Position numbers and translations under genes: made by a program
Assembly: GCA_963701025.1 (NCBI GenBank)
Contig: OY969557.1
Location: 368,622 to 432,621, forward strand
Direction: 5' to 3'
DNA: 64,000 nucleotides
Source of the DNA: an uncultured bacterium
Lineage (GTDB): Bacteria > Patescibacteriota > Minisyncoccia > Phycocordibacterales > PALSA-1337
Part shown: positions 1,379-56,693 of the stretch, in pieces
Position numbering within the stretch: the first letter of the stretch is position 1
Layout: every line of letters begins with the position of its first letter
Notes under the pieces: generated by a model
What the model saw: only the letters and a program-made list of their open reading frames with translations
Databases searched by the model: none
What the model was told of the DNA's origin: nothing

Positions 1379-3223
1379 ATGAATCCTCATAGGTTAGCTC
1401 TAGTATCAACGCTCTACGCAATACCGATTATCATCACCGCGCTATGGATCGCCACCCCTGGACGGGCATACGCATCGTCCGACATCTCGATCTGGTGGCC
1501 GACCGACGGCGCTCACATTTCATCCGTCCAGCCTTTCAAGGCGCTCGTCGACGGCATGGCACTCTCTGACTATTCCATGTACTGGCAGGTGGACAACGGC
1601 CAGCTCAATCAGATGAGCGACAACGCGACCGACGCTCCGCACAAAGAAGCGTCCGTCGACGTCTCCGGATGGCACTGGAGCGGTAGCGGTGCATATCAGG
1701 TGAGCTTCGTCGCCAAGGACTCCGGCGGCAATACCATAGCCCAAAAACAGGAGACTATATATGTAGATCAGCCTGCGGCGAATATTCCGACCCCCTCAAG
1801 TGCACCTGCTCCGGTTGCCCCAGCACCGACGAGCATACCCGCACCGACAAACGTGCCCATCAATGCATCCGCGTCGATCTGGTGGCCGACCGACGGCGCT
1901 CACATTTCATCCGTCCAGCCTTTCAAGGCGCTCGTCGACGGCATGGCACTCTCTGACTATTCCATGTACTGGCAGGTGGACAACGGCCAGCTCAATCAGA
2001 TGAGCGACAACGCGACCGACGCTCCGCACAAAGAAGCGTCCGTCGACGTCTCCGGATGGTCATGGCATGGCGCCGGTCCGTACGCCGTCAACTTCGTGGC
2101 GAAGGACAAGAACAGCTCCGTCATCGCCTCTAAAGGCGTGAACATATACGTCGACCAGCCAGCGGCGAGCGCTCCGGTGACGGCGCCACCTGCTCAAATT
2201 TCCGCCGATCCTATTCAAGTCCAGGCCGCAACCGCACCGATCGCGCCCGTACCGACAAGCGCGCCTGTACCGACAAGCGTCCCTATCACGATCGCGACTC
2301 CCCCATCGACGGTTCCTTCCCAACCCGCAACGGCCATTTCCGGCGAGGGCGACTCGCTCTCCGGCCTCTCTTTCTACGTCGATCCGACAAGTGAAGCGGC
2401 AATCCAGGCGACAGCTTGGAGCGTCTCCGATCCGGCGGGCGCGAGCGAGATGGAAAAGATCGCCATTGAGCCAGTGGCGAAATGGTTCGGCGACTGGAAC
2501 ATCGACGTGCGCTCTGACGCGGAGAATTATGTAGACGCGGCCGTGTCGGCCGGCGAGACGCCTATTCTCATCGCCTATGACATACCCGAACGTGATTGCA
2601 ACGGATACTCCGGCGGAGGCGCTTCGAGTCCGTCCGCGTATACAGCCTGGATACAAGGCCTAGCTTCTGGTATCGGTAGCCGACGTGCGGTCGTCATTCT
2701 GGAGCCAGACGCTTTGGCTATGATGGATTGTCTGTCGCCGATCGATCAAAGCACGAGACTCGGCCTTCTTAGCTCCGCGGTCGCCACGCTCAAAGCCAAC
2801 GGCAAAAATACCGTCTATATAGACGCCGGCCACTCGGACTGGATAGGAGCTTCGGATATGGCCGCGCGCCTCTCCGCCGCCGGCGTCGCTGGAGCGGATG
2901 GATTCTCCTTGAACGTCTCCAATTTCTACACGACGGCGGACCAGATCGCCTACGGGACAGCGTTGTCGTCTCTCATCGGAGATAAGCACTTCGTCGTGGA
3001 CACTGGCAGGAACGGTCTCGGGCCGGACGGCGATCTCTGGTGTAACCCTCCAGGACGCGCCCTCGGGACCAGGCCGACGACGAATACCGGCAATCCGCTT
3101 GCTGACGCCTTTCTCTGGCTGAAGACGCCGGGCGAGTCCGACGGAGCCTGCAACGGCGGCCCGAACGCGGGCGTCTGGTGGCCGGATTACGCGCTCGGTC
3201 TCGCGGAACGGGCAGCTTACTAG
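1379..3223 (+). CDS. Secreted glycoside hydrolase family 6 (cellulase/endoglucanase). It has an N-terminal signal/TM, two tandem ~100-aa Ig/CBM-like repeats, a Pro/Thr linker and a C-terminal GH6 catalytic domain.
   Basis: The catalytic domain has the GH6 signature segments YDIPERDCN, VILEPDALA, DAGHSDW and FLWLKTPGESDG, which are collinear with Thermobifida Cel6A-type enzymes. Confidence 0.85.
   Translation: MNPHRLALVSTLYAIPIIITALWIATPGRAYASSDISIWWPTDGAHISSVQPFKALVDGMALSDYSMYWQVDNGQLNQMSDNATDAPHKEASVDVSGWHWSGSGAYQVSFVAKDSGGNTIAQKQETIYVDQPAANIPTPSSAPAPVAPAPTSIPAPTNVPINASASIWWPTDGAHISSVQPFKALVDGMALSDYSMYWQVDNGQLNQMSDNATDAPHKEASVDVSGWSWHGAGPYAVNFVAKDKNSSVIASKGVNIYVDQPAASAPVTAPPAQISADPIQVQAATAPIAPVPTSAPVPTSVPITIATPPSTVPSQPATAISGEGDSLSGLSFYVDPTSEAAIQATAWSVSDPAGASEMEKIAIEPVAKWFGDWNIDVRSDAENYVDAAVSAGETPILIAYDIPERDCNGYSGGGASSPSAYTAWIQGLASGIGSRRAVVILEPDALAMMDCLSPIDQSTRLGLLSSAVATLKANGKNTVYIDAGHSDWIGASDMAARLSAAGVAGADGFSLNVSNFYTTADQIAYGTALSSLIGDKHFVVDTGRNGLGPDGDLWCNPPGRALGTRPTTNTGNPLADAFLWLKTPGESDGACNGGPNAGVWWPDYALGLAERAAY
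1487..2059 (+). repeat. Intragenic tandem duplication: two 186-nt blocks (1487-1672 and 1874-2059) that are 100% identical, spaced 387 nt apart, inside the GH6 gene
   Basis: Direct sequence comparison. The flanking parts of the two protein repeats are diverged, so the identical core suggests recent gene conversion or a duplication/assembly collapse. Confidence 0.9.
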
Positions 3224-9012: not shown

Positions 9013-10287
9013 TTAAGCGAGGATCGGCAAAGAGATCCTGAAAGTACTCCCTTCGCCCTCGGTACTCGTCACGGAGAGCTTGCCACCGTGGACTTCGGTG
9101 GACCACTTAGCTATGGCGAGTCCCAGGCCGGTGCCTTCGGGGTTCTTGTGCCGCGCCTCGGCGGACCGATAGAATCTCTCGAACACGTGCGAAAGGTCTT
9201 TTTCGGATATGCCGACACCGTCGTCGGCTATATCGATGTGCGCCCAGCGCCCTTTCTTCGATCCGCTGACGCGGACATGGCCGCCTTTCCGGCCGTACAA
9301 TATGGCGTTCTCGATGAGATTGACGAACAGCCGATCGAGGTATGTTCCATTGCCGGAAACGGAGACATCCGGAAGGCTTCCTATCTTCAGGGATATGCCT
9401 CTCTTCGCGGCGAAGCCCTCGCATCTTTTCGCCGCCTGCGCGACCGTCTGACGGAGGCCGGTCTCGATCATAGCCAGCTTTTCGCGCGATGAGTCCCATG
9501 ATGTGGTGAGCAGAGCCATGTCCGATATGAGTATGGTGAGATGCTTCACCTCGTGATCGATGGCGCGGAGCGCCCGCTTCGCCTCCGAGACGCTCGATGG
9601 ACCCGACTGCAGGACGAGGTCCACGTTGCCTTTTATGATGGCGAGCGGGGTCCGCAGCTCGTGCGTGGCATTGGACATGAACTCCGATCTCGTTTTTGAT
9701 TCTTTTATATTCGCCTCCTGTTCCGCCTCTTTCTGCATCGCTTCGTTCTCCTTCTTGATCAAGCTGTTGATCTTTATGGACCGCGCAGTAGAATGGCCGA
9801 GCGAGGCAGCGAGCGACCGATCAACATCGGAGAAGGCGCGCGGCCGCGTATAGCAGAGGACGATGCTACCGTAGAGGTCGGCCTTGTAGGCTATCGGCAC
9901 GATGACATAGCTCTTCATGTACGGGCTGACGTCGTACTTCTTCTCGTAGTTGCCGCTGACGACTTTCTCCATGAAAAAAGGAGACCGGCTCTTTGTGGCT
10001 TGAAAATTGCCTCCCCGTTCCCTCGGCAGATTGGGCTCATACGGCGTCTCCGGGCTCTTATATATGAGCCGATGCTTCGACTTCTCTCCCGTCTGCCACC
10101 AAGCGAATCCGTAATCGGCCTCCAATATCTCTATGCCGGCCCGGGTGAACAGCTCGACGATCTGCAACGTATCGTGAAAAGCCAGTCCATCCAAGATGGC
10201 CTGGTTCAATGAAGATATCTTTTTTGAGATGATATGTTCCATGTCTTTAAAAAATCCCGTCTTGGAGCATGTCCTGCGAGAGGGCAC
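9013..10287 (-). CDS. Cytoplasmic sensor histidine kinase with an N-terminal GAF-like domain
   Basis: H-box ATHELRTPL and HATPase_c motifs (GTGLGLAIAK...GSTFRISLP). No TM segments. Confidence 0.85.
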   Translation of the reverse strand: MPSRRTCSKTGFFKDMEHIISKKISSLNQAILDGLAFHDTLQIVELFTRAGIEILEADYGFAWWQTGEKSKHRLIYKSPETPYEPNLPRERGGNFQATKSRSPFFMEKVVSGNYEKKYDVSPYMKSYVIVPIAYKADLYGSIVLCYTRPRAFSDVDRSLAASLGHSTARSIKINSLIKKENEAMQKEAEQEANIKESKTRSEFMSNATHELRTPLAIIKGNVDLVLQSGPSSVSEAKRALRAIDHEVKHLTILISDMALLTTSWDSSREKLAMIETGLRQTVAQAAKRCEGFAAKRGISLKIGSLPDVSVSGNGTYLDRLFVNLIENAILYGRKGGHVRVSGSKKGRWAHIDIADDGVGISEKDLSHVFERFYRSAEARHKNPEGTGLGLAIAKWSTEVHGGKLSVTSTEGEGSTFRISLPILA

Positions 10288-11320: not shown

Positions 11321-11989
11321 ATGACCATACTCATCATAGAAGACGAAAAGAAGCTCGTCGCTATATTGAAAAAGGCCCTGAAACGCGAGCGCTACGCCAC
11401 GGACGAGGCATACGACGGCGAAGCGGGACTCAAGAAGGCCCTGAAGAACAGCTACAGCCTCATCCTGCTCGACATCATGCTGCCACGGAGGAACGGCATG
11501 GAAGTCTGCTCCGAGCTGCGCCGGCGCGGCAGAGAGACTCCCGTCATCATGCTCACCGCCCGGGGCATGACCGAAGACCGCGTCCAAGGCCTCGACCTCG
11601 GCGCCGACGACTATATCGTCAAGCCGTTCGAGATGAGCGAGCTCTTCGCCCGTATGCGGGCCGTGCTCCGCCGGAGGAAGGCTCTCGAAGCGCCCGTGCG
11701 GAAGGTCGGCAACCTCGTCTTCGACGCGTCCCGGCATCAGGTCACCCGCGCCGGCAGACAGATCGCTCTCACGCCGAAGGAATATCGCCTGCTGGACACG
11801 CTCATCCGCCACGCCAATCAGGCGTTGACCAGGCGTCAGCTCCTCGATGAGGCGTGGGGACCGGATTTCAAGGAAACGAACTACGAGCTCAACGTGCATA
11901 TACGCTATTTGAGGCAGAAGATCGACCCCGCCCGGACGAAAAAGCTCATCTGTACGGTGCGCGGCGTCGGTTATGCGCTTCGAGAGTGA
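11321..11989 (+). CDS. OmpR-family response regulator (receiver plus winged-helix)
   Basis: LILLDIMLP receiver motifs and a C-terminal trans_reg_C domain. It is divergent from the kinase operon. Confidence 0.9.
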   Translation: MTILIIEDEKKLVAILKKALKRERYATDEAYDGEAGLKKALKNSYSLILLDIMLPRRNGMEVCSELRRRGRETPVIMLTARGMTEDRVQGLDLGADDYIVKPFEMSELFARMRAVLRRRKALEAPVRKVGNLVFDASRHQVTRAGRQIALTPKEYRLLDTLIRHANQALTRRQLLDEAWGPDFKETNYELNVHIRYLRQKIDPARTKKLICTVRGVGYALRE

Positions 11990-17928: not shown

Positions 17929-18000
17929 GCCCTCGTAGTTCAACGGATAGAACAACTCCGTCCTAAGGAGTGGATGTAGGTTCAATTCCTGCCGAGGGTA
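17929..18000 (+). tRNA. tRNA-Arg (anticodon CCT)
   Basis: Manual fold: acceptor GCCCTCG/CGAGGGT (G1:T72), anticodon stem ACTCC/GGAGT, loop GTCCTAA, T arm GTAGG-TTCAATT-CCTGC. No encoded CCA. Confidence 0.75.
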
Positions 18001-18038
18001 CTCTACACAGTAGCGCTTGCGAAATAGAATCTGCTATA

Positions 18039-18737
18039 ATGTCCGCCATGAAAATACTGGTCGTAGAAGATGATCCGTCGATCGCCGAAGCGCTCCGTGC
18101 CGGACTAGTCTCCGAAGCCCATGCGGTCGATGTCGCGAGCGACGGCACCGACGGGTCGTTCCTGGGACGGAGCTATGAATACGACGCCGTGATTCTGGAT
18201 CATGCCTTGCCGGGAAAGAACGGCATCACGGTCTGCAAGGAGATCCGTAGCACCGGCAAGATGACGCCGATCATATTCCTGTCCGTGACCGGAGATGCCG
18301 ATACAAAGGTCGCGGCCCTCGAGAACGGAGCCGATGATTACGTCGTGAAGCCGTTTTCGATGGCCGAGCTGCGAGCGCGGATCCGCGCGGTCGCGAGGAG
18401 AACACCGGTCGTCCGGAGCGCCGAACTGAAAGTGCACGACCTCGTCCTTGACCCGGGCAGGCATTCTGCCACGCGCGGTTCGAGACATATCCATCTGACC
18501 AAGAAAGAATTCGCTCTTCTTGAATATATGATGAGAAATCAGGGGGTAGTATTGTCGCGCTCCATTCTCATGGAGCACGTCTGGACGGCCGACAATGACC
18601 CGTTCTCCAATACTGTCGAGGCCCATATGCGCAACCTACGCAAGAAACTGAATGCCGGGAATAAGCGGGATCTCATCTCCAATATGCCAGGTCACGGCTA
18701 TATCATGGACGCGACCGAGCGCCTTGTTCGGCTATAG
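18039..18737 (+). CDS. OmpR-family response regulator
   Basis: MKILVVEDD receiver and a winged-helix C-terminus. The track ORF start at 17970 overlaps the tRNA, so an internal ATG is chosen. Confidence 0.9.
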   Translation: MSAMKILVVEDDPSIAEALRAGLVSEAHAVDVASDGTDGSFLGRSYEYDAVILDHALPGKNGITVCKEIRSTGKMTPIIFLSVTGDADTKVAALENGADDYVVKPFSMAELRARIRAVARRTPVVRSAELKVHDLVLDPGRHSATRGSRHIHLTKKEFALLEYMMRNQGVVLSRSILMEHVWTADNDPFSNTVEAHMRNLRKKLNAGNKRDLISNMPGHGYIMDATERLVRL

Positions 18738-18738
18738 A

Positions 18739-18850
18739 ACCGGATCTTCATCGTTTCTTTATCCGATCTTCATCGTTTCTTTATCCGATCTTCATCGTTT
18801 CTTGAGCCTTTCTTGAGCGTTTCTTTATCTGCGCCTGATAAGCTGACCGC
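18739..18850 (+). repeat. Array of about nine phased 11-bp direct repeats (cgtttctttat / ccgatcttcat / sstttcttgag). This is copy A; copy B is at 26119-26208.
   Basis: Read directly. The 11-mers form 22-bp super-units. A similar block (~85% identity) recurs 7.4 kb away. Confidence 0.85.
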
Positions 18851-18930
18851 GGTTATGTGTCGACATAACTAATTATAAATATGGTGATGGTAACCACAAA
18901 GAGGATCCGCTCCCTGGAATAGCTAAAATC

Positions 18931-20490
18931 ATGGCACCTCTTCTCGTACAGGCAGTAGGAGCAAAGAGGAACGCCGCGCGGGCACTCTCCGCCCGGGCGG
19001 CGTTATTCCTAGGATACATATCTAAAAGCTCGCCCTCGCCCGTACCAACCGACGAAGAGCGGAGGCGTAAGGGGTATCTGTTGAACATCATCCTGATCCT
19101 TTCGCTCGCGTACCTCATCATACTCGGAACAACGACCCTGTGGAATTGGGCTATTAAGGGAGGCTCATATGACGACATTCATCCGCTTGTATTCGGAGGC
19201 ATAATCGTCTTTTATGGGGCATTATTGCTGATATCGAAGCGTGGTCATGTCCAAAGCGCTTCTTTCATTCTCGTGGCTTCGGACATGCTCGGCGTCATCT
19301 GGGGTGGCTGGGTCTGGGGAGCAAGTCTGCCGGAAACGCTCTTATTCACGGCTCTCATCATAGTAACGGCAAGCGTGCTCTTGGGATCGACCAAGGGTTT
19401 CATCGTCGCCGGGGCAATGATAGGCGCACTCTCTATTCTCGGCATACACGAAGCGACTGTGCTGAACGTACCAGATTGGAGGTACGACGAGATAACCGCC
19501 GCCGACGTCATATCGTACTCTGCCCTGCTCTTATTCATGAGCTTTGTCGGCTGGCTTTCGAACCGGGAGATCAGGTTGTCTCTCGACCGGACCAAGCGTT
19601 CGGAAAAAGCTCTTGAAGAGGAAAGGAACATGCTCGAGAGGCGAGTAGCCGAGCGCACGAAAGAAATGGTCGCCTTGGAAAGGAAAAATATGTTTTCCCG
19701 GATGGAAACACTGGATCAGGCGGCTCATATAGGCGAGCTGTCGCAGGGAGTCCTACATGATCTGATGAGCCCTTTGTCCGCGATCGCTCTATATGTGGAG
19801 GATATCGCCCGGACGGGCACGGACGTGCATGCTCATGATGGGGGCCGCATGCGGGAGATGATGGAAAAGGCCGTGGAGACGTCAAAACGTATGAGGTCAT
19901 TCATGGAAAGCGTCAGACGACATATAGATCCGGGAGAAAAGTGTTGCATGATAGCGCAAAAGACCGATATAGGCGAAGAGATAGAGATCGCCAGGGATAT
20001 TCTGGCATATAAAGCCCGTATGGCTAATGTCCGTATAATCATAGAGAAGTGCGATCCAATTGAGATTGCCGCCCATCCGGTGCGTATCCATCAAGTATTT
20101 TTGAACCTCATGTCTAACGCTATCGATGCGTGCACGGAAGCTTCAAAAGAAAAATCGGTGCATATTTCGGCCGTTGAAAACGGTGAGAATCTCTTAATAA
20201 CTGTTGCCGACACCGGTTGCGGCATGACCTCGGCGCGACTGGAGTCGCTTTTCGGAAAACCCTCAACGACCAAGCCGCGTGGAACCGGCATCGGCCTTAT
20301 GACAGTCAGATCGATCGTCGAGGGAGAGCTTGGCGGCTCAATCATGGTCAAGAGCGAAGAGGGAGTCGGTACTACATTCATCCTGACCATACCTATGCGC
20401 CCTATGAAGGATACGGAAACAAAAAAAGCTGTATGCGGAATAAATGAACAAAAAGTCAAAGTTCCATATTCTTCACTTCTTACTCTTTGA
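18931..20490 (+). CDS. Membrane sensor histidine kinase (about five TM helices plus HisKA-like and HATPase_c)
   Basis: H-box VLHDLMSPLSAI; ATP-binding motifs DTGCGM and GTGIGL. Confidence 0.85.
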   Translation: MAPLLVQAVGAKRNAARALSARAALFLGYISKSSPSPVPTDEERRRKGYLLNIILILSLAYLIILGTTTLWNWAIKGGSYDDIHPLVFGGIIVFYGALLLISKRGHVQSASFILVASDMLGVIWGGWVWGASLPETLLFTALIIVTASVLLGSTKGFIVAGAMIGALSILGIHEATVLNVPDWRYDEITAADVISYSALLLFMSFVGWLSNREIRLSLDRTKRSEKALEEERNMLERRVAERTKEMVALERKNMFSRMETLDQAAHIGELSQGVLHDLMSPLSAIALYVEDIARTGTDVHAHDGGRMREMMEKAVETSKRMRSFMESVRRHIDPGEKCCMIAQKTDIGEEIEIARDILAYKARMANVRIIIEKCDPIEIAAHPVRIHQVFLNLMSNAIDACTEASKEKSVHISAVENGENLLITVADTGCGMTSARLESLFGKPSTTKPRGTGIGLMTVRSIVEGELGGSIMVKSEEGVGTTFILTIPMRPMKDTETKKAVCGINEQKVKVPYSSLLTL

Positions 20491-21255
20491 TTTCTGATTC
20501 TCCTGCTGTACATCCCGTGCCGCTTTCCTGTAGGCGCAATAATCGCAGGCGGCAGCGGGCTTCGGCAAAATCTCGTTCATAAGGCACTTTTTGATGTCGG
20601 CGAGGGCTTTTTCCACCCACCCGTCATCGCCGGTATACGGGATTATATCGATGTCGAATTCAAGCTTGGCGTCGAATGCCGCACGATCTGTCTTGCCATT
20701 ACAATAGACGAAATAACCGGTCGACGAGACCTTGAAACCGTTCCGTCGGAATAGCCATTGATAGACTTCCATCTGGCGCTTGTAGCCGATCTGCCACTCC
20801 TTGTCGAGGGTGACTTTCTCTTCCTTGCTGGTAGATTTATAATCGACAATGATCAATTCCCCCTTCGCATTGATCCAGACATCGTCGATGGCGCCGGTCA
20901 CGAGCAGATTGGTCGGCTCATGGAGGAAACGGATGCCTTTGAAATTGCTTCGCCAGGTATCGAGATCTTCATGGCTGTACGGCACCACGTCGCGGACGCC
21001 ATAGGCGTGCATCAGAGGGTGCGGGCGGCCTTTAGCGCGATGGACGTCGAATTCTTTCTTGAGCAAGGTGTCCACCGCAGAGTTCAAGGCGAACGGAAAG
21101 CCCGGTGGCCTGCCCACGCCGAGACGGCAGTCCAGATAGAAGCAGAGCGGGCAGTTCATGAAGAGGTCTATCTTCGAACGGCTGATCCTGAACGGCTCCG
21201 CGCTTCCCGGATTGAAGAGATTGCGGCTGCGGCGAGAATTGTAATAGTCGGACAT
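20473..21255 (-). CDS. PD-(D/E)XK nuclease, Cas4/RecB-family-like with a four-Cys cluster (DUF83-like)
   Basis: IIVDYKS core with an N-terminal CPLC and a C-terminal CDYCAYR. No CRISPR or cas context. Confidence 0.65.
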   Translation of the reverse strand: MSDYYNSRRSRNLFNPGSAEPFRISRSKIDLFMNCPLCFYLDCRLGVGRPPGFPFALNSAVDTLLKKEFDVHRAKGRPHPLMHAYGVRDVVPYSHEDLDTWRSNFKGIRFLHEPTNLLVTGAIDDVWINAKGELIIVDYKSTSKEEKVTLDKEWQIGYKRQMEVYQWLFRRNGFKVSSTGYFVYCNGKTDRAAFDAKLEFDIDIIPYTGDDGWVEKALADIKKCLMNEILPKPAAACDYCAYRKAARDVQQENQKSKSKK

Positions 21256-25707: not shown

Positions 25708-26100
25708 TTATTTCTTGCCGTTTTTCTCGTCAGGCTTGAGCTCCAGGCAGACGGAGTTCATGCAATATCGCTTGCCCGTCGCCGTCGGACCGTCGTCGAA
25801 TATGTGGCCGAGGTGGGAACCGCAATTGGCGCAGACGACTTCTGTTCGGATGGATCCATGGCTTGAGTCCTCATTGAATTTGACCGCGCCCGGCAGGGCC
25901 TGGTCGAATGACGGCCAACCGGTACCCGAATCGAATTTCGCATCGGACGGAAAAAGAGGATTGCCGCAGACCTTGCACATATACGTGCCGACGCGCTTTT
26001 CGTGCAGGAGTTTGCCGCTAAAAGGCGCTTCAGTCCCCTTCTCGCGCAGGACCGCGTACTCTTCCGGCGTCAGTTTCTTTTTGATCTCTTCTTCATTCAT
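25708..26100 (-). CDS. msrB: Peptide-methionine (R)-S-oxide reductase
   Basis: CGWPSF, CxxC zinc motifs and the catalytic RTEVVCANCGSHLGHIF segment. Confidence 0.9.
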   Translation of the reverse strand: MNEEEIKKKLTPEEYAVLREKGTEAPFSGKLLHEKRVGTYMCKVCGNPLFPSDAKFDSGTGWPSFDQALPGAVKFNEDSSHGSIRTEVVCANCGSHLGHIFDDGPTATGKRYCMNSVCLELKPDEKNGKK

Positions 26101-26118
26101 AGGGACATTTTAACACGA

Positions 26119-26208
26119 TATCCGATCTTCAGCATTTCTTTATCGAAATTTCATCGTTTCTTGAGGCTTTCTTGAGCGTTTCTTTATTTCGACCTGATAA
26201 TCTTGCCG
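26119..26208 (+). repeat. Copy B of the phased 11-bp direct-repeat array (copy A at 18739-18850)
   Basis: The sequence atccgatcttcagcatttctttatcgaaatttcatcgtttcttgaggctttcttgagcgtttctttatttcgacctgataa aligns to copy A at about 85% identity. Confidence 0.8.
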
Positions 26209-26213
26209 ATACG

Positions 26214-26478
26214 GAGGGTATCGGCCTTCCGCGTAGGCGTGTTCCTGGAGAGGAACTGAACTTTAACCAAGTGCAGTAAGCCGGTGCAACTCCGGTCACG
26301 TCTACAACGTAAACGGCTTGACAAGTATATCTAGGCACGAATACAATTAATGAGTCGAATAAACCCGACTGGTAGACGTGTGAGGAGTTGTACTCTTCAG
26401 GCTGGCCATTGAATCCAGACATGGATTCATTCACTGGCAACACAAGGCCTCTTCGGGGGCTTTTGTGTTTATACCGGA
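26214..26478 (+). ncRNA. Candidate structured non-coding RNA in the 390-bp msrA-msrB spacer; strand and identity uncertain
   Basis: Several local hairpins (gccgata/tatcggc, gttcct/aggaac, ccgg/ccgg, aatcca/tggatt), a 7-bp long-range pairing cgtctac...gtagacg, and a terminal ggcctc-ttc-gggggc hairpin followed by ttttgtgttt. No ORF with coding character. Confidence 0.3.
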
Positions 26479-26489
26479 TCAATTTGAGC

Positions 26490-27035
26490 CTACTGCGCCA
26501 GCAACCTGGCGAACTTCTTCTGCAATTTTTCCAGTTTTGGCGCGATGACAAGCTGACAATATGGCTTATCTGAATTGTGCTTGTAATATTCGTGATGATA
26601 ATCCTCGGCCTCATAGAATCTTTCGAGCGGACAGACTTCGGTCACCACCGGCTTGTCGTAGGCCTTTGAATCATTCAATTCTTTGACAAGCGCCTCCGCC
26701 GTGGCCTTTTGTCCGGCGTTCGAATAGAAAATAGCCGAGCGATATTGCGTACCAACGTCATTGCCCTGCCTGTTCAAGGTGGTCGGATCGTGAGTGTTGA
26801 AAAAGACTGCCAACAAATCGTCGTATGAGATGATTGCGGGATCGTATTCTATCTTGATAGCTTCGGCATGTCCGGTATTCCCTTCCGACACTTGTTCGTA
26901 TGTCGGATCCGCAAGGACACCACCTGCATAGCCGGGCACGACCGACTTCACGCCTTTCAGCATGGAGAAAACCGCCTCTGTGCACCAGAAGCATCCGTTG
27001 GCAAAGACCGCCGTCTCGAGAGCGGTATCCGCCAT
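26490..27035 (-). CDS. msrA: Peptide-methionine (S)-S-oxide reductase
   Basis: GCFWC active-site motif and full-length PMSR fold. Confidence 0.9.
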   Translation of the reverse strand: MADTALETAVFANGCFWCTEAVFSMLKGVKSVVPGYAGGVLADPTYEQVSEGNTGHAEAIKIEYDPAIISYDDLLAVFFNTHDPTTLNRQGNDVGTQYRSAIFYSNAGQKATAEALVKELNDSKAYDKPVVTEVCPLERFYEAEDYHHEYYKHNSDKPYCQLVIAPKLEKLQKKFARLLAQ

Positions 27036-27169: not shown

Positions 27170-29086
27170 TTACCCAAACGTGAAAGTATACGCCTCAACC
27201 CCCGGCCTCGAGAATATGATGTCCACCCTATGTTGCCCGGCCATATTATTTGGATCGGCATAGAAATTGTATAGGCGAGAAGAGTCGACATGGATGATGC
27301 CGCCTTTGTCGTCGACGCCGACCCGACTCGGCAGGATCGGCTTGCCGTCGATGAGAACGGTCGCGTCAGCAGGCTTGCCATCGGCCGTGGACAATATGAT
27401 ATAAGCTTTGGAAGCAGTGAATATGTACGACAAGGTCGATGAAGCAGATTCCGTCTCCGCGTACTCCTGGTCTATGTGCCACTTTCCTCCTAGATAGAAT
27501 TGATTGGGTGTCAATGAAGCCGGAGTAGTATAAGAATTATCTCCTTGAATGAGGGGGGTGCCGTTGCCGAAATACTCATTTCTCATGGCGCCGAAATATG
27601 TCTCCGGGCTTTGGGCTTGGATAGAATAATCTGACGCCGTGCTAGTACCAGTCGAGACCGAGCCGCTTTGGCCCAGATAAGCCATGCGATCATTCAAAAG
27701 CTTGACGATCTCCGACTCGAGGACAGGCTCATTGCCCTCGCCGATATAGTCGTAGACCACGTTGCCGTGTATGTCTATGAAATATTTGTGCGGCCAATAT
27801 TCATTGCCGTAGGCGTTCCAGGTGGCGTAATCATTGTCGAGAACAATCGGTAATTTCAGACCGTATTGCGCGGCGGCGGCTGTGACATTGTTGATATCTT
27901 TCTCGAAGGCGAATTCCGGCGTATGGATAGCCACGATTTCCAAACCTTGACTAGCATACTTGGACCACCACATATTCAAAGCCGGAAAAGTGCGCTCGCA
28001 ATTGATGCAGGAATAGTCGATGAAGTCGACGAGGATGACTTTTTTGCCGATGAAGTCGACGAGCTTGAACGGGGTATTACCGCCGTAGGGACTATTGACG
28101 AAACCTGCAGGATCTTTGATCTCGACGTATCTGCCTTCATTGGACTCTACCGGAGGTGGGGGTAGGTTCGCGGATATGGCGTTTTTCAAATCTTGCCGTA
28201 GCAAGATTCCGGAATGGGTCATCGCAGAGGAAGAGTCCACTGCGCCGCCGGTCGAAGCGGTCGAAGTCGCGCCAGAGAATGCCGATAATGAAGCTTCCGG
28301 CAGTGACGATGGCCCTTGCAATGATTGATGTATTGATTGCTCGATCGTCGTGACATCGAAGAATCCGCTGTTCAGGATGGCGGCCTCGACTTTCTTGTCC
28401 CAGCCGAAGACTATGGCCACGGCCACTATTATAAATAGGACGCCGAGGGCCTTGCGGAACCATCCGTACGGATCGGAGGCCCATTCAAGGCGGCCGACGA
28501 GCTTTTGGCCTATATAGGCGATGAGTAACAAAGCCAAGGACAAGCCGATAACGTAAGCCAAAAGATCGATGACGCCCATGCTCAAAGATTGCGGCAAGAC
28601 CGTGGCCAATATGACGAAGAAGGTCGGCGAACAGGTGGTGAAGACCGGGCCGAGTGCAGCGCCGACGAGAACATCTCCCCACCACGAGGCGCGATTCCGA
28701 TAACCCTTTGCCATCCACGATTCCGGTTTGTCGTGACCGGGCAATTTGAGCACGATCTTGGCCCAGGTTGTCGGGAACAAAAGGGTCAGGCCGAAGGCTA
28801 TCAGGATGATCGCCGATATATATGCCCAGAATGTCGGTGATGCTCCGATAAGAGCGGTCGAACCTTTCAGCAACAGAGTGAAGACGAAAACTGAAATCGC
28901 CAGGGCGCCGATGATAGTGAATGGCCTGCGCTTATTCCCCGCTTCCGCCATCGCTCCGCCCAAGGTCACCGGCAGAAGCGGCAGAACGCATGGCGCCAAT
29001 ACCGTGAGAGCTCCGGCGATGAATGAGACTAAAAGCAGTATCATGCCTTTTATTATACCTAATGGAGTGTAGTATGATAAGTCCAT
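27170..29086 (-). CDS. DsbD/CcdA-like transmembrane thiol-disulfide electron transporter fused to a periplasmic TlpA/redoxin domain (CINC) plus a C-terminal domain
   Basis: The N-terminal CcdA-type TM region has paired Cys (APCVLPLL; TTCSPTF). A thioredoxin-fold block follows (VILVDFIDYSCINCERTFP...YWPHKYFID). The start is taken at MDLSYY to avoid overlap with the divergent sigma gene. Confidence 0.7.
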   Translation of the reverse strand: MDLSYYTPLGIIKGMILLLVSFIAGALTVLAPCVLPLLPVTLGGAMAEAGNKRRPFTIIGALAISVFVFTLLLKGSTALIGASPTFWAYISAIILIAFGLTLLFPTTWAKIVLKLPGHDKPESWMAKGYRNRASWWGDVLVGAALGPVFTTCSPTFFVILATVLPQSLSMGVIDLLAYVIGLSLALLLIAYIGQKLVGRLEWASDPYGWFRKALGVLFIIVAVAIVFGWDKKVEAAILNSGFFDVTTIEQSIHQSLQGPSSLPEASLSAFSGATSTASTGGAVDSSSAMTHSGILLRQDLKNAISANLPPPPVESNEGRYVEIKDPAGFVNSPYGGNTPFKLVDFIGKKVILVDFIDYSCINCERTFPALNMWWSKYASQGLEIVAIHTPEFAFEKDINNVTAAAAQYGLKLPIVLDNDYATWNAYGNEYWPHKYFIDIHGNVVYDYIGEGNEPVLESEIVKLLNDRMAYLGQSGSVSTGTSTASDYSIQAQSPETYFGAMRNEYFGNGTPLIQGDNSYTTPASLTPNQFYLGGKWHIDQEYAETESASSTLSYIFTASKAYIILSTADGKPADATVLIDGKPILPSRVGVDDKGGIIHVDSSRLYNFYADPNNMAGQHRVDIIFSRPGVEAYTFTFG

Positions 29087-30624: not shown

Positions 30625-32499
30625 ATGAAAAGAACATTTAAAAAAAGCTTCGCCATCCTCGCCGCACATAAGGTATGGACCGGCGTAGCCGTGATCGCCG
30701 TCGTTGCCGCGGGGTATGGCGTCTATCATTACACTCGTCCCGCCCCCGTGCCGCAGTATACGATCTCCCGCGCGAGAGTCGGCAACATCGTAGAAACAGT
30801 CACCGGCACCGGGCAGGTCTCCGCCGCCAATCAGCTCGACGTCACAAGCCAGGTATCCGGCACCATAGAGTCCATCGACGCGACAGTCGGCCAACAGGTC
30901 AGTAAGGGCGATCTCATCGCCACCATAGACCCGACGAATGCCTTGAACGCCCTCAACAACGCCAAGATCGCCTACGCCAAACTAACCGAAGCGCCGAAAA
31001 CCACTGATATCTCGAACGCGCAGGATTCCGTGACGCAATCATACGGCAACGCTTTCAATACTGTCTCCTCATTATTCCTCGATCTCCAGATCGTCATGCC
31101 TGGGATGGATTCTCTTTTATACAATCAAGGGACATTCTTGAGCGACCAGGAGGCGACGCAATTGAGCATAACGGCGCAGAATTATCGCAACACGGCCGGC
31201 ATAAGCTATGACAAAGCCAAGACGCAATATCAGAGTCTTCTTGACGAATATGCCGCCTTGTCTAGGCAAAGCTCCACGAGCACGATAGACCAGGATCTTG
31301 CCGACGCGTACGCGTTAGCCAAGAACGTCGCCAACGCCTTGGCTGATATGCAGAATGCCATCACCTTCATCACCACTAATCAGCCGAATTATCTGACCAA
31401 AGACGCCGCGACTGCCCAAAGCAACGTGACGACGTGGTCGAATAGCATAAACAGCGATGTCTCTTCCCTGCTCTCTGCGGAGACGGGCATCACGAGCGCG
31501 GAGAATTCCCTGGCCAATCTCGTCGCTGGAGCGGACCCGTTGGACGTGCAGTCGCAGCAGCTATCGCTCCAGCAAGCCGAGCAGACCTACGCCAACTATT
31601 TCATCCGCGCGCCGTTCGACGGCGTCATCGGGCGCATCCCGGTCAATGTGTACGGACAGGCAGGCGGTTCGACCGTCATCGCCACCGTCATCGGCAACCA
31701 AAAGATCGCCACGCTGTCGCTCAATGAAGTCGACGCGGCCACGGTCAAGACCGGCGATCCGGTATCCCTCACCTTCGACGCCATCAATAATTTCACCGCC
31801 ACCGGCACAGTGGCTGAGGTCGACCTGGTCGGCACGGTGTCATCCGGCGTCGTCTCCTATGGCGTCAAAGTCGCCATCAATACCGGCGACAGCCGCATCA
31901 ACCCAGGTATGAGCGTGAATGCCACCATAACGACCAACGAGATAGATAATGTCCTCATCGTGCCGGCTGCCGCTGTGAAGACCCAGGGCAACGCGAATTA
32001 TGTCCAGATATTCGCTTCTTCGACGGTAAGTCAATATATGGCCACATTGGCAGCAACGAACGGAGCAGCCGCGAACGGAGGGACTGCGAGCTCGACTAGA
32101 AGGTCATTTGCCTCGACGACATTCGCCGGAGGATATAGCGGCGGAAGCGGCAGCGGTTCTACCACGAGACAGTTCGGCGCAGGCGGAAGCGGCGCGAACG
32201 GCACGGCTCGCAACACAAGCGTCACCATGAGTTCCGCTGTCGCGCCGCAAAATCAGATCGTGACCATCGGCGCATCCGATGGAACGAATACTCAGATACT
32301 CACAGGTCTTTCCACCGGAGCATGGGTCGTGACCAAAACCGTGGCGGCATCCGCCGCAGTCACCACTGCCGCGCCAAGCCTTCTATCCAGTCTCGGTGCA
32401 GGCGGCCGAGGAGGATTCGGCGGAGGAGGCGCGGGTGGCGGAGCAGTCAGAACGGCGGCGCCTGCGGCGGCACCGGCGGCAGCGGCTACGGGACGATAA
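30625..32499 (+). CDS. HlyD/MacA-family periplasmic adaptor subunit with a ~150-aa Gly/Ala/Ser/Thr-rich C-terminal tail
   Basis: N-terminal TM, coiled-coil region, beta-barrel/lipoyl segments, and a tail of GGSGSGS.../GGRGGFGGGGAGGG. Confidence 0.75.
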   Translation: MKRTFKKSFAILAAHKVWTGVAVIAVVAAGYGVYHYTRPAPVPQYTISRARVGNIVETVTGTGQVSAANQLDVTSQVSGTIESIDATVGQQVSKGDLIATIDPTNALNALNNAKIAYAKLTEAPKTTDISNAQDSVTQSYGNAFNTVSSLFLDLQIVMPGMDSLLYNQGTFLSDQEATQLSITAQNYRNTAGISYDKAKTQYQSLLDEYAALSRQSSTSTIDQDLADAYALAKNVANALADMQNAITFITTNQPNYLTKDAATAQSNVTTWSNSINSDVSSLLSAETGITSAENSLANLVAGADPLDVQSQQLSLQQAEQTYANYFIRAPFDGVIGRIPVNVYGQAGGSTVIATVIGNQKIATLSLNEVDAATVKTGDPVSLTFDAINNFTATGTVAEVDLVGTVSSGVVSYGVKVAINTGDSRINPGMSVNATITTNEIDNVLIVPAAAVKTQGNANYVQIFASSTVSQYMATLAATNGAAANGGTASSTRRSFASTTFAGGYSGGSGSGSTTRQFGAGGSGANGTARNTSVTMSSAVAPQNQIVTIGASDGTNTQILTGLSTGAWVVTKTVAASAAVTTAAPSLLSSLGAGGRGGFGGGGAGGGAVRTAAPAAAPAAAATGR

Positions 32500-32632
32500 T
32501 GGTTATTATGACGGGACATCTTCATGTGGGTGAGGATGCCTTGCGAGCGCGACTGGCGCGAGCACGAGGAATTTTTCAGCAGAAAAATATCCGTGCATAC
32601 GAATCCCACATGAAGATGTCCTTCAAATTACC

Positions 32633-33352
32633 ATGATCGAAGTAAAAAATATTACTAAAACCTACGTGAACGGGGATAACGAGACTCACGCCTTGCGCGG
32701 CGTGTCCTTCACCATCAAAGACGGCGAATTCGTGGCCATCATGGGGCCGTCCGGATCAGGCAAATCCACTCTCATGCATATCCTCGGCGCTCTAGACACG
32801 CCGACTTCCGGTACCTATATCCTTGACGGCAAAGACGTGTCCAAGCTGTCCGACGACGAGCTCGCCGTCATCCGACGGGACCGCATCGGTTTCGTCTTCC
32901 AGTCATTCAACCTCCTGCCTCGCGCCACCGTCATGAGGAACGTCACCCTACCGCTCATATACGCGGGAGTGCCGGAAGCTGAACGCGATAAGCGAGCACG
33001 GAAATCGCTGGAGTCGGCCGGGCTCGACGAGGACCGTTTCGACCACAAGTCGAATCAGCTCTCCGGTGGCCAGATCCAGCGCGTGGCCATCGCCCGGGCG
33101 CTGGTCAACAATCCGTCCCTTATCCTGGCCGACGAGCCGACAGGAAACCTCGACTCGCAGACAGGCGATATAGTCCTCGGCACGTTCCAGAGGCTGAATA
33201 AAGAATTGAAGGGCACCATCATCCTCATCACTCACGAGCGCGAAGTGGCCGAGCATGCCGACCGTATCATATACATACGCGACGGGCTCATCGTCGAAGA
33301 CGGCAGCTCGCACGAGAGGCGCATCATCGGCCATGCGAAACATAAAGCATGA
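32633..33352 (+). CDS. ABC transporter ATP-binding protein (MacB/LolD type)
   Basis: Walker [10 protein letters not shown], signature [15 protein letters not shown], Walker [12 protein letters not shown]. Confidence 0.9.
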
Positions 33353-33412
33353 GGGTATAGGGTTAAGGGTGTAGGAAATCACACCCTCTACCCTACACCC
33401 TCTACCCTAACT

Positions 33413-34639
33413 ATGACCACCAAAGACATCATCCATGAGACGATATCAGCGCTCACCGCCAACAAAGTGCGTACGGCCCTGACCATGCTCGGCATAGTGA
33501 TCGGCATCAGCTCGGTCATAACCATGGTCTCCATAGGCCAAGGAGCCCAAGGCTCCATACAGTCGAGCATCCAAGCTCTCGGCTCTAACCTGCTCATCAT
33601 CTCTCCCGGCGCCCAAAGGACGCCCGGCTATCAGGCTTCGGCCGGCCGCGGATCGTCTCATACGCTTACGCCCGGGGACGCCGCGGCCATAAGCTCCGGC
33701 ATCGCCAACGTAGCCGCCGTCTCGCCGGAAGATTCCGGCCGTTATCAAGTGACCGCCAAAGGCACCAATACCAATACGACCGTGACCGGCGTCACCACGG
33801 CTTATGCCGACGTCCATAATGTCCAGGTCAATGACGGCTCATTCATTTCCGATAACGACAATAAGAGCCTGAACAAAGTGGCAGTCATCGGCCCGACTAC
33901 CGCCACGGATCTCTTCGGCACCGGAGTCGAGCCGGTCGGCCAAACCATAGTCATCAAAGGCATAAACTTCACCGTGATCGGCGTGACGGTCTCGAAGGGC
34001 ACCACCGGCTTCAATAACCAAGACGATATGATATATATCCCCTTGCAGGACTCGGAGCTCTTCCTGGTCGGAAATACGACATATCTGACGTCAGTCAGCG
34101 TGTCCGCAGTCTCAGCCGACGCCATGACGCAAGTCCAGAATGACATAACCGCACTGCTTCTCCAGAGGCACAAGATCAGCGATCCGACGCAGGCTGACTT
34201 CAACGTTCTGAACCAGGCGTCCATCGTCTCGGCGGCATCATCAGTCACCGGCACTTTCACCATACTGCTCGGCGCCGTAGCCGGCATATCCCTCGTCGTC
34301 GGCGGCATCGGCATCATGAATATGATGCTCACCACCGTGACCGAGCGCACCCGCGAGATCGGCCTGCGCAAAGCCATCGGCGCCAAGCGGCGCAACATCA
34401 GCACCCAATTCCTGACAGAGGCCGTGGCTTTGACCGTGATAGGCGGAGCCATCGGTGTCTTCCTCGGCTGGCTCATATGTTACGGAATGACCTATTTCGG
34501 CATCTTGCAAACGTCTATCTCGATCTCATCCATCCTCCTAGCTTTCGGCGTCTCCGCGGCCATCGGCATCGTTTTCGGCTATTACCCCGCCCGCCGCGCA
34601 GCTGGATTGAATCCGATAGAGGCCTTGAGGTATGAGTAG
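33413..34639 (+). CDS. ABC transporter permease, MacB/FtsX family
   Basis: N-terminal TM, a large periplasmic domain and a C-terminal FtsX four-TM bundle (TERTREIGLRKAIGA). Confidence 0.85.
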   Translation: MTTKDIIHETISALTANKVRTALTMLGIVIGISSVITMVSIGQGAQGSIQSSIQALGSNLLIISPGAQRTPGYQASAGRGSSHTLTPGDAAAISSGIANVAAVSPEDSGRYQVTAKGTNTNTTVTGVTTAYADVHNVQVNDGSFISDNDNKSLNKVAVIGPTTATDLFGTGVEPVGQTIVIKGINFTVIGVTVSKGTTGFNNQDDMIYIPLQDSELFLVGNTTYLTSVSVSAVSADAMTQVQNDITALLLQRHKISDPTQADFNVLNQASIVSAASSVTGTFTILLGAVAGISLVVGGIGIMNMMLTTVTERTREIGLRKAIGAKRRNISTQFLTEAVALTVIGGAIGVFLGWLICYGMTYFGILQTSISISSILLAFGVSAAIGIVFGYYPARRAAGLNPIEALRYE

Positions 34640-37603: not shown

Positions 37604-37720
37604 GGGGATATTATATCATAAATGAAATAGTTATCATCGAAGATATCCACTATTCAAATAATAGGGTTATTTTTTGGTGTGGCACGGTCGGCCTCTCTCC
37701 CTAACATACCCCCTATTTCA

Positions 37721-37812
37721 AATCTTGCTATAACAAGATTTTCCTATGGACATGGACGGGAAGAAGCCATTTTCTGGGAAAATTAACGCGGGAATCTTGC
37801 TGTGACAAGATT
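37721..37812 (+). promoter_or_regulatory. Two copies of a 7-bp-arm palindrome AATCTTG-N6-CAAGATT (37721-37740 and 37793-37812) upstream of the PadR gene; putative operator pair
   Basis: Both palindromes read directly. They lie 72 bp apart and 90-180 bp upstream of the PadR start. Confidence 0.5.
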
Positions 37813-37904
37813 TCAAAAAGAGGCATCAGACAGAACATGTCATTCCTCCCCAGCTCAAGAAAGCGAGCGGTGGCAAAAGTGGCAAAAAGAGTATAATAGA
37901 CGCC

Positions 37905-47357: not shown

Positions 47358-48365
47358 TTATAGCAGGTATGCCGATCTTAACTTCTCGATTTGGGCTTTT
47401 AGTTTATGACTATTGCCGTGACTGATCAGACCGAGATAAGACTGTACGGTCTCCGCTTTTCCGCCTTTTTCCTCGATCGTTCTAAACATCTTCCGCTTCG
47501 TTGCAGTTCGTAGCACACGATGATCCGTAAAATTGATCCATCCGAGGTAGTCGACGCCGGAGGCAATGGTGCGTATGGATATTTTCTTGGGATGTAAATG
47601 AAGGTGTAATCTGTCGTTCAAAAAAGATCGTATCTGCGGAATGAGCCCGACAAGCCAGTCCCGATCTGATGAGAAGAGAACGAAATCATCGGCGTAGCGG
47701 ATATAGTATTTTGCTTTAAGTTTGTGCTTCACGAACTGATCGAACTCATTCATGTAGATATTGACTAGGAGCTGTGAAGTGAGGTTGCCGAGAGGTAGAC
47801 CGATGCCGTCGGCAGTCGAGTGAAAGCTGCCAATGATTTCAGAGAGGAGCCAGATAATATCCTTGTCTGGAATATAATCTTTGATGATTTCAACGAGTAC
47901 TCTCTGGTCAATAGATGCGAAGAATTTCTTGATGTCGCATTTAAGCACCCAAGCAGTCTGCGTGTGATTCTGCGTCACTTTGTATGAAAAATCTCGGAAT
48001 CGGTTTACTGCTTCATGTGTCCCCTTTCCGAACCTGCATGAAAATGAATCCGCAATGAATATCTTGTCGAAAAAGATATGGAGTTCACGATAGATTGCGT
48101 GATGAAGTAGCCTGTCTCTCACGCTCGCCTTGTGGATGTTCCTCGGCTTTGGGTCGGATATATTGAACGCTTCGTATGATGAATGCTTGTAAGTCTTTGC
48201 CACAAGGTCATTATGAAGCGAAATTATATTGTCCATCAGATTTCGTTCGAATGTCTGAACGTCTTTTCTGGCCCGTTTTCCTTTCACGAACTCTTTCCAT
48301 GCCTCGATGATATTTTCGAGGGAAATGATATGATTGTAGCCATGTCCAAATTGAATCCGTCGCAT
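47358..48365 (-). CDS. DGR-type reverse transcriptase
   Basis: RT domains 1-7 with YADDFV. The DGR-diagnostic motif 4 is GIGLPLGNLTSQ (SQ instead of the group II SP). The N-terminus (FNISDPKPRNIHKASVRDRLLHHAI...SFSCRFGKGTHEAV) is typical of DGR RTs. No maturase or endonuclease domain. Confidence 0.85.
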   Translation of the reverse strand: MRRIQFGHGYNHIISLENIIEAWKEFVKGKRARKDVQTFERNLMDNIISLHNDLVAKTYKHSSYEAFNISDPKPRNIHKASVRDRLLHHAIYRELHIFFDKIFIADSFSCRFGKGTHEAVNRFRDFSYKVTQNHTQTAWVLKCDIKKFFASIDQRVLVEIIKDYIPDKDIIWLLSEIIGSFHSTADGIGLPLGNLTSQLLVNIYMNEFDQFVKHKLKAKYYIRYADDFVLFSSDRDWLVGLIPQIRSFLNDRLHLHLHPKKISIRTIASGVDYLGWINFTDHRVLRTATKRKMFRTIEEKGGKAETVQSYLGLISHGNSHKLKAQIEKLRSAYLL

Positions 48366-48378
48366 GTCAGAGAAGTCG

Positions 48379-48389
48379 CCCCCCCCCCC
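48379..48389 (+). repeat. C11/G11 homopolymer in the ~40-bp gap between the divergent avd and RT starts
   Basis: Read directly. Confidence 0.9.
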
Positions 48390-48406
48390 ACGGATTTTTA
48401 CCTGTA

Positions 48407-48760
48407 TTGAGTAAGGTGAAAGAAACATATTTGTTGTGGTATGGATATTACCAGATTTTACCCAAGGCACACAGGCATTCCCTTGGACAGAGGATTGACG
48501 GCCTTTTTATCGAAGTCATAGAGGCCATAACTGCCGCCAGTTTCTTGTCTCCCATTGAAAAACATCCGTATGTCCGGTTGGCCATCAAAAAGACCGACAC
48601 GCTCAAGGTCTTGCTCATGGTTCTGTGGGAGACCAAATCGCTTGATGACAAGAAATATATAGCCCTGTCGGTGAAGTTGGACGAGATAGGCAAGAATCTG
48701 GGCGGCTGGAACGGACAACTCACAAGACAAAACTCCCCCGTAAAAACGAGGGAGAAATGA
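48407..48760 (+). CDS. Accessory variability determinant (Avd)-like four-helix-bundle protein, encoded on the strand opposite to the RT, TR and VR
   Basis: 117 aa. LPKAHRHSLGQRIDGLFIEVIEAITAAS and a C-terminal KLDEIGKNLGGW resemble bAvd (…IAEVGRILGSWI) and the TIGR02436 family. TTG/GTG start. Confidence 0.7.
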   Translation: MSKVKETYLLWYGYYQILPKAHRHSLGQRIDGLFIEVIEAITAASFLSPIEKHPYVRLAIKKTDTLKVLLMVLWETKSLDDKKYIALSVKLDEIGKNLGGWNGQLTRQNSPVKTREK

Positions 48761-48766
48761 AGAGAG

Positions 48767-48890
48767 TTGCGGACACCGCAGCCGGATTGTTGGAGTTCCA
48801 GTCGTTGTCGAGCCAGTTGTTGCTCCAAATCCACCTGTCGCCGTTCCAGTTGAGGTAACGGACGTAGAGGTTGCCGTCAGAGTTGCGGTA
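48767..48890 (-). repeat. DGR template repeat (TR)
   Basis: 124 nt, 111/124 identical to the VR. On the minus strand it reads ...YRNSDGNLYVRYLNWNGDRWIWSNNWLDNDWNSNNPAAVSA with many AAC codons. Confidence 0.85.
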
Positions 48891-49171: not shown

Positions 49172-49193
49172 CCCCAAGCCGAATTGCTTGGGG
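49172..49193 (-). terminator. Perfect 8-bp hairpin (ccccaagc-cgaatt-gcttgggg) between the target gene and the TR
   Basis: Read directly. On the minus strand it is followed by tttgtcattt. Confidence 0.45.
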
Positions 49194-56663: not shown

Positions 56664-56693
56664 GACAATTCTTTAATCCCTAATATTCAATTA

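Follow-up and report, generated by a model that had tools for sequence, protein, structure and literature searches.

The locus described here lies in a stretch of 64,000 nucleotides from an uncultured bacterium of the Patescibacteriota (contig OY969557.1, positions 368,622 to 432,621), which is referred to below as the window. In this window, the gene of an OmpR/PhoB-family response regulator (RR1) is followed on the same strand by the gene of a histidine kinase (HK1), and the space between them contains an array of head-to-tail 11-bp direct repeats (array A). A second copy (array B) is located in the spacer between msrB and msrA, two methionine-sulfoxide repair genes. Judged from its sequence, each array is the upstream part of a plus-strand promoter with a pho-box-like layout and a predicted start site. 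The arrays are thus probably a genuine cis-regulatory element, a pho-box-like promoter that is present in two copies and depends on RR1. A preliminary description of the window had noted the repeats; it missed that the array itself appears to be a promoter and that the same architecture heads DNA-uptake genes in other Patescibacteria. Coordinates of the features are collected in Table 1.

The two arrays of 11-bp direct repeats that the preliminary description had noted are real and beyond chance. Tandem Repeats Finder detected array A with a period of 22 bp (18743-18829, 4.0 copies, 87% matches, score 132) and with a period of 11 bp (7.7 copies), and detected array B with a period of 11 bp (26157-26184). 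A repeat search of the window paired 18760-18849 with 26119-26208 at 84% identity, in agreement with the earlier estimate of about 85%. Pairwise alignment revealed that the homology between A and B runs from TATCCGATCTTCA to CCTGATAAnCTnnCCG only; none was found outside, and the homology ends with the promoter module. The unit counts had to be revised. About nine units had been assigned to copy A and one fewer to copy B, but eight are clear in A and six in B, which is two fewer. The supposed ninth unit, ctgcgcctgat, consists of a 7-nt spacer and the start of an extended -10 element, and ctgataa, which had been regarded as the tail of the array, is likewise part of that element in both copies. 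When the 64 kb were searched with a 33-nt core pattern, A and B were the only matches (0 expected, from 100 shuffles). A phased position-weight scan with three units scored A and B at 33-47 bits and the rest of the window at 12.9 bits or less, and a model of two units plus the -10 element again matched A and B alone (0 matches in 50 shuffles). A chance origin of the repeats is excluded.

The units are defined by sequence as well as by period. A logo made from 48 units of eight loci gave the consensus nnwwtyTTnAk, in which T7 (48/48), T8 (45/48) and A10 (46/48) are nearly invariant, position 11 is G or T, and the 5' half is A/T-rich, positions 3-5 being mostly A or T. The near-invariance of T7, T8 and A10 across the eight loci indicates that the array is sequence-specific and not merely T-rich. 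In the window arrays the tract is TTTCTT, a run of T broken by C. Many units in three of the related loci described below (L096, L098 and L099) are AnTn tracts in 11-bp phase.

Regulators of the OmpR/PhoB family bind tandem direct repeats with a period of 10-11 bp, and in Escherichia coli the pho box is placed 10 bp upstream of the -10 element, where it replaces the -35 element. The arrays of the window have the same arrangement: TTTCTTTAT is followed by 7 nt and then by TGaTAAGCT (A) or TGaTAATCT (B). The distance from the last unit to the TAnnnT hexamer is 10-11 nt in all 11 arrays compared (A, B and those of nine relatives), and the TG extension is present in nine of the 11, L098 and L099 being without it. 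No TTGACA-like hexamer was found at 17-bp spacing from the -10 element at the arrays. The site of promoter B was also called by a consensus promoter scan, as TTGAGC-18-GATAAT. The motif TGnTAnnnT stands 6-8 nt before the start codon of 19 of the 59 long open reading frames (ORFs) of the window, against 3.3% per random position, which indicates that in this organism it identifies real promoters, most of which are leaderless. Leaderless mRNAs made from extended -10 promoters thus seem to be the rule here. The hexamers behind the arrays are off-consensus (TAAGCT and TAATCT); those of the RR1 and msrB promoters are TATAAT and TAAAAT. Weak hexamers together with the lack of a -35 element are what would be expected of activator-dependent promoters.

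RR1 has the domain structure of a full-length OmpR/PhoB-family regulator. Its start had been set at 18039 (or 17970); the ATG at 18048, behind a leaderless promoter of its own, is the most likely one. There is no array upstream of RR1, where a tRNA-Arg gene is located (17929-18001). The homologues of RR1 that were listed share 55-83% identity with it, and the few with a named source are from Patescibacteria, Paceibacterota, Parcubacteria and Taylorbacteria. The closest homologue of solved structure is DrrD of Thermotoga maritima (PDB 1kgs, E = 1.2e-51, residues 2-220), which is uninformative on DNA specificity. Another two-component pair is encoded in the window as well, by the genes of a GAF-domain histidine kinase (9013-10287, minus strand) and of the OmpR-type regulator RR2 (11321-11989, plus strand), which is 39% identical to RR1.

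We also examined relatives, whose loci, all metagenomic, were found via homologues of the kinase and of the regulator. Nine loci (L091, L092, L094 and L096-L101) carry a regulator with 57-81% identity to RR1, and the module follows directly after its stop codon: 4-8 units of 11 bp, 10-11 nt, TAnnnT, 6-7 nt and a hairpin. Within the 20-kb loci of RR1 orthologues, this array next to the regulator gene was the only one found, even at a lax threshold. The module is kept at L098, L100 and L101, where the kinase gene is missing, and at L096, where only a remnant of the kinase is left. Since copy A has the orthologous position beside regulators that are only 57-62% identical, it is old and under selection. 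Arrays were also observed beside more distant members of the family. At L051 the array lies 3' of a regulator 48% identical to RR1, at L002 it lies 5' of a leaderless regulator gene whose product is 43% identical, and at L103 it lies 5' of a more distant regulator gene that has a leader. In an alignment of recognition helices that excluded L103, the signature PFSN(T/S)xExHxRNxRKK was common to the array-adjacent regulators, L051 carrying a variant, and was missing from RR2.

The transcript of promoter A is predicted to begin with a short hairpin at +1, followed by the rest of the HK1 leader. Its general form is GGTTATG-NGTCGA-CATAAC, with a variable outer G and terminal C (motif GGTTATGNGTCGACATAAC), and its core, TTATG-N-GTCGA-N-ATAA, was found in nine of nine related loci, including those without the kinase gene. 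In an alignment of nine of these sequences the stem has 7 bp with one compensatory change from G:C to A:U, and the closing pair is G.U, G:C or A:U. The ATG within the hairpin was rejected as coding, as the first codon position varies and the third positions are fixed. The HK1 leader is conserved; no conserved structure was predicted in it past the first hairpin. About 30 nt beyond the hairpin a GGTGATGG motif is present. Orthologues of HK1 (57-59% identity) occupy the same position in L091-L094. A gene for a PD-(D/E)XK nuclease (20473-21255, minus strand) adjoins RR1/HK1 and is conserved in L092, L094, L096, L097, L099 and L100; the gene of a DHH-family phosphoesterase mostly lies close by. 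A functional link to the two-component system is possible.

Array B lies in a different context. The preliminary description had placed it just upstream of the msrB start, and it is indeed close to that start codon (22 nt); it is, however, inside the gap between msrA and msrB, and its promoter is directed away from msrB. The same description suggested that the array ties the two-component system to methionine-sulfoxide repair. In that form the tie is not supported. The gap between msrA and msrB is only 12-15 nt in the syntenic relatives L092 and L096, and the 389-bp spacer with array B is therefore a lineage-specific insertion. In addition, promoter B would fire on the plus strand, away from msrB and into a predicted structured non-coding RNA. 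We rejected array B as a minus-strand promoter of msrB, since msrB has its own TGtTAAAAT, 6 nt and ATG, and the comparative data fix the direction of the array as plus. The spacer appears to have brought msrB its own promoter. Only 9 nt separate its -10 element from the distal end of the array, and occupancy of array B could therefore affect msrB-tspO as a possible side effect. Copy B itself looks like a duplicated promoter cassette.

The region behind promoter B is predicted to encode a structured RNA of about 260 nt. Its fold energy (26210-26470) is -104.6 kcal/mol, against -74.9 for shuffles (z = -6.0). A strong inner promoter, TTGACA-18-TACAAT, lies within the region (26318-26347), and an intrinsic terminator, a stem at 26444-26463 followed by a T-run, closes it. 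There is no convincing ORF in 26210-26470; a 161-aa ORF (26129-26614, minus strand) and small ORFs of the spacer look like noise. No homologue of the RNA was found with nhmmer in the relatives' loci examined. The only matches to Rfam at gathering score in the window were two tRNAs, and a permissive search of both array regions gave chance-level hits.

The same promoter design was found elsewhere in Patescibacteria. When the genomes of 185,579 species were searched for TTTCTTKAK in three phased units, we obtained many unrelated T-rich repeats together with a coherent set from metagenome-assembled genomes (MAGs) of Patescibacteria; the species of the window was not among the matches. In this set the third unit is followed after 10-11 nt by TAnnnT, usually preceded by TGn, and the start codon is mostly exactly 6 nt further on. 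A leaderless mRNA transcribed from an extended -10 promoter is laid out in this way. The unit-to-hexamer spacing of 10-11 nt was seen likewise at competence-type matches of the promoter model, and the junction TTTAT-CTC after the last unit is common to these promoters and to the arrays adjacent to RR1. Three-unit TTTCTTTAT arrays with this spacing precede leaderless comEC, comM, dprA and MBL genes as well as an RR1-like regulator gene (Table 1). A single MAG, H32-bin108_1, has the element before comM, comEC, an MBL gene and dprA. With orthologous pairs collapsed, about six of 12 promoters precede DNA-uptake genes; a back-of-envelope binomial estimate, which takes about 2% of the genes of a genome to be of this type, puts the chance of this at about 1e-7. 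Other array matches precede the ribosomal S6 gene and genes of mobile or defence type (KilA-N, MazE, NYN and SIR2_2). In the Parcubacteria MAG RS_6_24 (L014, L051, L082 and L089) the arrays are multi-copy and share their flanks, e.g., ggtaacgttaccctaacgttaccttttataaatattttagaa. No competence gene is among the annotated genes of the window.

Table 1. Features of the two array loci in the window, and genes found behind array promoters in other Patescibacteria
Feature	Position or locus	Strand	Remarks
Extended -10 of RR1 leaderless promoter, TGcTATAAT	18032-18040	+	then 7 nt, ATG 18048
RR1	18048-18737	+	OmpR/PhoB-family response regulator; Response_reg and winged-helix Trans_reg_C (Pfam); candidate array binder
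Array A	18741-18828	+	8 head-to-tail 11-bp units; begins 4 nt past RR1 stop codon
Array A units, 5' to 3'			cggatcttcat, cgtttctttat, ccgatcttcat, cgtttctttat, ccgatcttcat, cgtttcttgag, cctttcttgag, cgtttctttat
Extended -10 of promoter A, TGaTAAGCT	18836-18844	+	hexamer begins 10 nt past last unit; no -35 hexamer
Hairpin GGTTATG-TGTCGA-CATAAC	18851-18870	+	at predicted +1 of promoter A
HK1 histidine kinase	18931-20490	+	HATPase_c (Pfam); 80-nt leader, 18851-18930, from predicted start of promoter A
msrB	25708-26100	-	start codon 26100; tspO downstream
msrA-msrB spacer, 389 bp	26101-26489		carries array B, predicted RNA gene and msrB promoter
Extended -10 of msrB leaderless promoter, TGtTAAAAT	26107-26115	-	then 6 nt, ATG 26100
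Array B	26122-26187	+	6 units of 11 bp
Array B units, 5' to 3'			ccgatcttcag, catttctttat, cgaaatttcat, cgtttcttgag, gctttcttgag, cgtttctttat
Extended -10 of promoter B, TGaTAATCT	26195-26203	+	10 nt past last unit; promoter-model match
Predicted structured non-coding RNA, about 260 nt	26210-26470	+	from promoter B; predicted start about 26210
msrA	26490-27035	-	DsbD/thioredoxin gene upstream
ComM behind array promoter	L009, L053		Pfam
ComEC behind array promoter	L020, L074, L034, L085		three lineages; Pfam
ComEC-like MBL protein behind array promoter	L074, L033		Pfam
DprA behind array promoter	L062, L070, L086		Pfam
Type IV pilin behind array promoter	L008		Pfam
Ada-Zn-type protein behind array promoter	L057		Pfam
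RR1-like regulator behind array promoter	L002

The preliminary description had suggested a multi-site array for an OmpR/PhoB winged-helix regulator, and this is the best-supported reading: the 11-bp period, the conservation of T7, T8 and A10, the fixed register to the -10 element and the nine relatives' loci all point to such binding. We consider it probable that the arrays are operators for phosphorylated RR1 and that they activate transcription; from the sequence we infer that RR1 is the binder, that it activates rather than represses, and where transcription starts. Phosphorylated RR1 would bind successive 11-bp units head-to-tail on one face of the DNA, with one dimer per 22-bp super-unit. 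The promoter-proximal unit, 10 bp before TGnTAnnnT, would stand in for the -35 element, and RNA polymerase would be drawn to this site by the bound RR1, in the manner of PhoB at a pho box. The transcript of promoter A, from about 18851, would carry the conserved hairpin first and then HK1, which would give positive feedback on the two-component system. At about 26210 the duplicated copy, promoter B, would initiate the structured non-coding RNA, which is about 260 nt long. RR1 bound to array B would probably also modulate msrB-tspO, the divergent leaderless -10 element being so close.

Several points weigh against this reading. Its support comes from sequence, with start sites that are predictions. 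An extended -10 promoter can be active with neither a -35 element nor an activator, and the arrays might just tune a constitutive promoter. Adjacency to the regulator is not universal, as no clear array was found at L102 and L104, which have L002-type regulators. The pattern that led to the competence-gene promoters had itself been taken from the window array, and an RR1 orthologue was not seen on the pieces of those MAGs that were examined. The window has a second OmpR-type regulator, RR2, the multi-copy arrays of RS_6_24 precede unrelated NYN, DUF350 and SIR2_2 genes, and the units are T-rich, some of them AnTn tracts in helical phase, which raises the possibility of DNA curvature or an UP element. 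In the last case the helically phased T/A tracts would be a generic enhancer that boosts an extended -10 promoter, either through curvature of the DNA or by serving the alpha subunit of the polymerase as an UP element, and no dedicated regulator would be needed. The A/T-rich 5' halves of the units, the AnTn tracts of L096, L098 and L099 and the dispensability of the -35 element for extended -10 promoters would agree with this. It is nevertheless unlikely, because curvature requires neither T7, T8 and A10 nor the G or T at position 11, all of which are kept over eight loci, and because the tract in the window is interrupted by C. Moreover, the arrays are rare (two in 64 kb, and one per 20-kb locus of a relative), and they go with one regulator gene and with competence genes, whereas the many other strong leaderless promoters of the window are without them. 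Less likely again is that the arrays are operators for another protein, RR2 or some other factor, and that they lie beside RR1 as part of the control of the kinase gene by another pathway. A second regulator and a second kinase are at hand, and RR1 is a candidate binder. However, adjacency to the RR1 family recurs in the orthologue loci and at L002, L051 and L103, both upstream and downstream of the gene, and RR2 differs in its recognition helix and had no array nearby in the window scans.

The preliminary description had offered a miniature inverted-repeat transposable element (MITE) or a repetitive extragenic palindrome (REP) as the alternative. The repeat search of the window revealed neither terminal inverted repeats nor target-site duplications at either copy, only two copies are present in the 64 kb, and the register to the -10 element is fixed; a MITE is not supported, and nor is an msr-specific device. 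In a wider form, in which the arrays are dispersed or mobile repeats or hitch-hiking promoter cassettes whose position has no specific regulatory meaning, the idea agrees with the location of copy B in a spacer that relatives lack and with its 84% identity to A over exactly the promoter module. In RS_6_24, where arrays with conserved flanks stand several times before unrelated genes, the module does appear to behave like a dispersed promoter cassette. For the window this explanation is improbable, as copy A is orthologously placed in loci whose regulator is only 57-62% identical. Finally, the arrays could be sites at the RNA level, pyrimidine-rich (AAGAAA-type on the other strand) and bound by an RNA-binding protein in the RR1-HK1 and msrA-msrB transcripts; both arrays do lie between co-oriented genes, from which read-through could transcribe them. 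Relative to the flanking operons, however, the two arrays differ in orientation (sense at A, antisense at B), neither the 11-nt period nor the constant distance to the -10 element has a rationale in RNA, and Rfam gave no match, so that we regard this as very improbable. Other candidates were rejected. Plasmid or phage replication iterons do not agree with flanks made of regulator/kinase and msrA/msrB genes or with a chromosomal position that is syntenic in relatives, and both CRISPR and coding repeats were dismissed on context. RR1 reached none of the NCBIfam equivalog cut-offs (176 bits for PhoB, against a cut-off of 296), and no phosphate-uptake gene is among the annotated genes of the window, which argues against a Pho regulon governed by PhoB/PhoR.

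Other features of the window were also recorded. In a diversity-generating retroelement (47358-49995, minus strand), an RVT_1 reverse transcriptase (47358-48470) is accompanied by a small ORF (48448-48834) and by the template repeat (48767-48890), and the target gene (49291-49995) carries the variable repeat at its 3' end (49296-49419); 12 of the 13 mismatches between template and variable repeat are at adenines of the template. Two paralogous HlyD/ABC/MacB-FtsX transporter operons are inverted relative to each other (30625-34639, plus strand; 54506-58178, minus strand) and account for the long inverted repeats I1-I4 of the window. A glycoside hydrolase family 6 gene (1379-3223) contains a 234-nt direct repeat with 92% identity (1487-1720 and 1874-2107), presumably because a domain is duplicated internally. 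A small palindromic motif, TTTCAAATCTTGC-N4-GCAAGATT, occurs in three copies (28182-28210, 37716-37740 and 37791-37819), one of them within a DsbD/thioredoxin gene.

The arrays resemble several known systems. Among the closest are the pho boxes of E. coli (pstS, phoA and ugpB) and PhoB: these share the 11-bp tandem repeats with a conserved core beside an A/T-rich segment, the replacement of the -35 element by an array 10 bp before the -10 element, several dimer sites side by side, a regulator of the OmpR/PhoB family, and a system that regulates its own component. In the cyanobacterial SphR pho boxes the period is 11 bp as well, and at least three tandem repeats of 8 bp are present. The motifs, however, are unrelated (CTGTCAT or PyTTAAPyPy in pho boxes, nnwwtyTTnAk in the window), and the window arrays differ in having an extended -10 element, up to eight units and no associated phosphate-uptake genes; the targets in other Patescibacteria are leaderless. 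The OmpR sites F1-F3 and C1-C3 of ompF and ompC and the tor boxes of TorR (four decameric direct repeats) are also contiguous runs of four to six or more half-sites in helical phase. They are thought to be filled hierarchically by the phosphorylated winged-helix regulator, and the 22-bp super-units of array A likewise alternate in unit quality. These sites differ from the arrays in their 10-bp period, their motifs and their recognisable -35 regions, and they belong to unrelated organisms and regulons. DrrD has the same full-length architecture as RR1, and we know of no regulon or operator described for it.

A shared element that marks comEC, dprA, comM and pilin genes is also a feature of known competence systems, namely the ComE direct repeats and the cin-box/SigX promoter of streptococci, the ComK boxes of Bacillus and the CRP-S/Sxy sites of Pasteurellaceae and Vibrio; the ComK boxes are A/T tracts in helical phase too. 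There the regulator is of the LytTR, ComK or CRP class or is an alternative sigma factor, whereas an OmpR/PhoB-type regulator and another motif are indicated here. To our knowledge, transcriptional regulation in Patescibacteria (the candidate phyla radiation) is almost unexplored. Natural competence has been demonstrated in Saccharibacteria (PMC10633639). Our literature search, which included that paper, found no competence regulator or promoter code for Patescibacteria and no description of the element. The kind of promoter is well known in itself; what was not expected is that it is conserved across Patescibacteria and associated with competence genes.

What the finding offers is a promoter architecture defined by sequence (at least three 11-bp units, 10 nt and TGnTAnnnT), a family of candidate regulators for which the recognition helix is diagnostic, and testable targets in the form of competence genes of other lineages and two candidate regulator-controlled RNAs. 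It may also yield an inducible promoter for use in those few members of the group that are genetically tractable. Should binding by RR1 fail, a well-conserved but ordinary upstream promoter element would remain. The most interesting lead is the link to competence genes, seen at promoter level in other Patescibacteria. We propose tentatively, and at somewhat below an even chance, that the RR1 family and the 11-bp arrays form a code used across the Patescibacteria. In such a code a two-component system would be the master switch of DNA uptake (comEC, comM, dprA, MBL nuclease and pilins), acting through leaderless pho-box-like promoters, and would also drive small structured RNAs such as the transcript with the hairpin at +1 and the 260-nt RNA; the arrays of the window would be the autoregulatory member and the RNA-gene member of this regulon.

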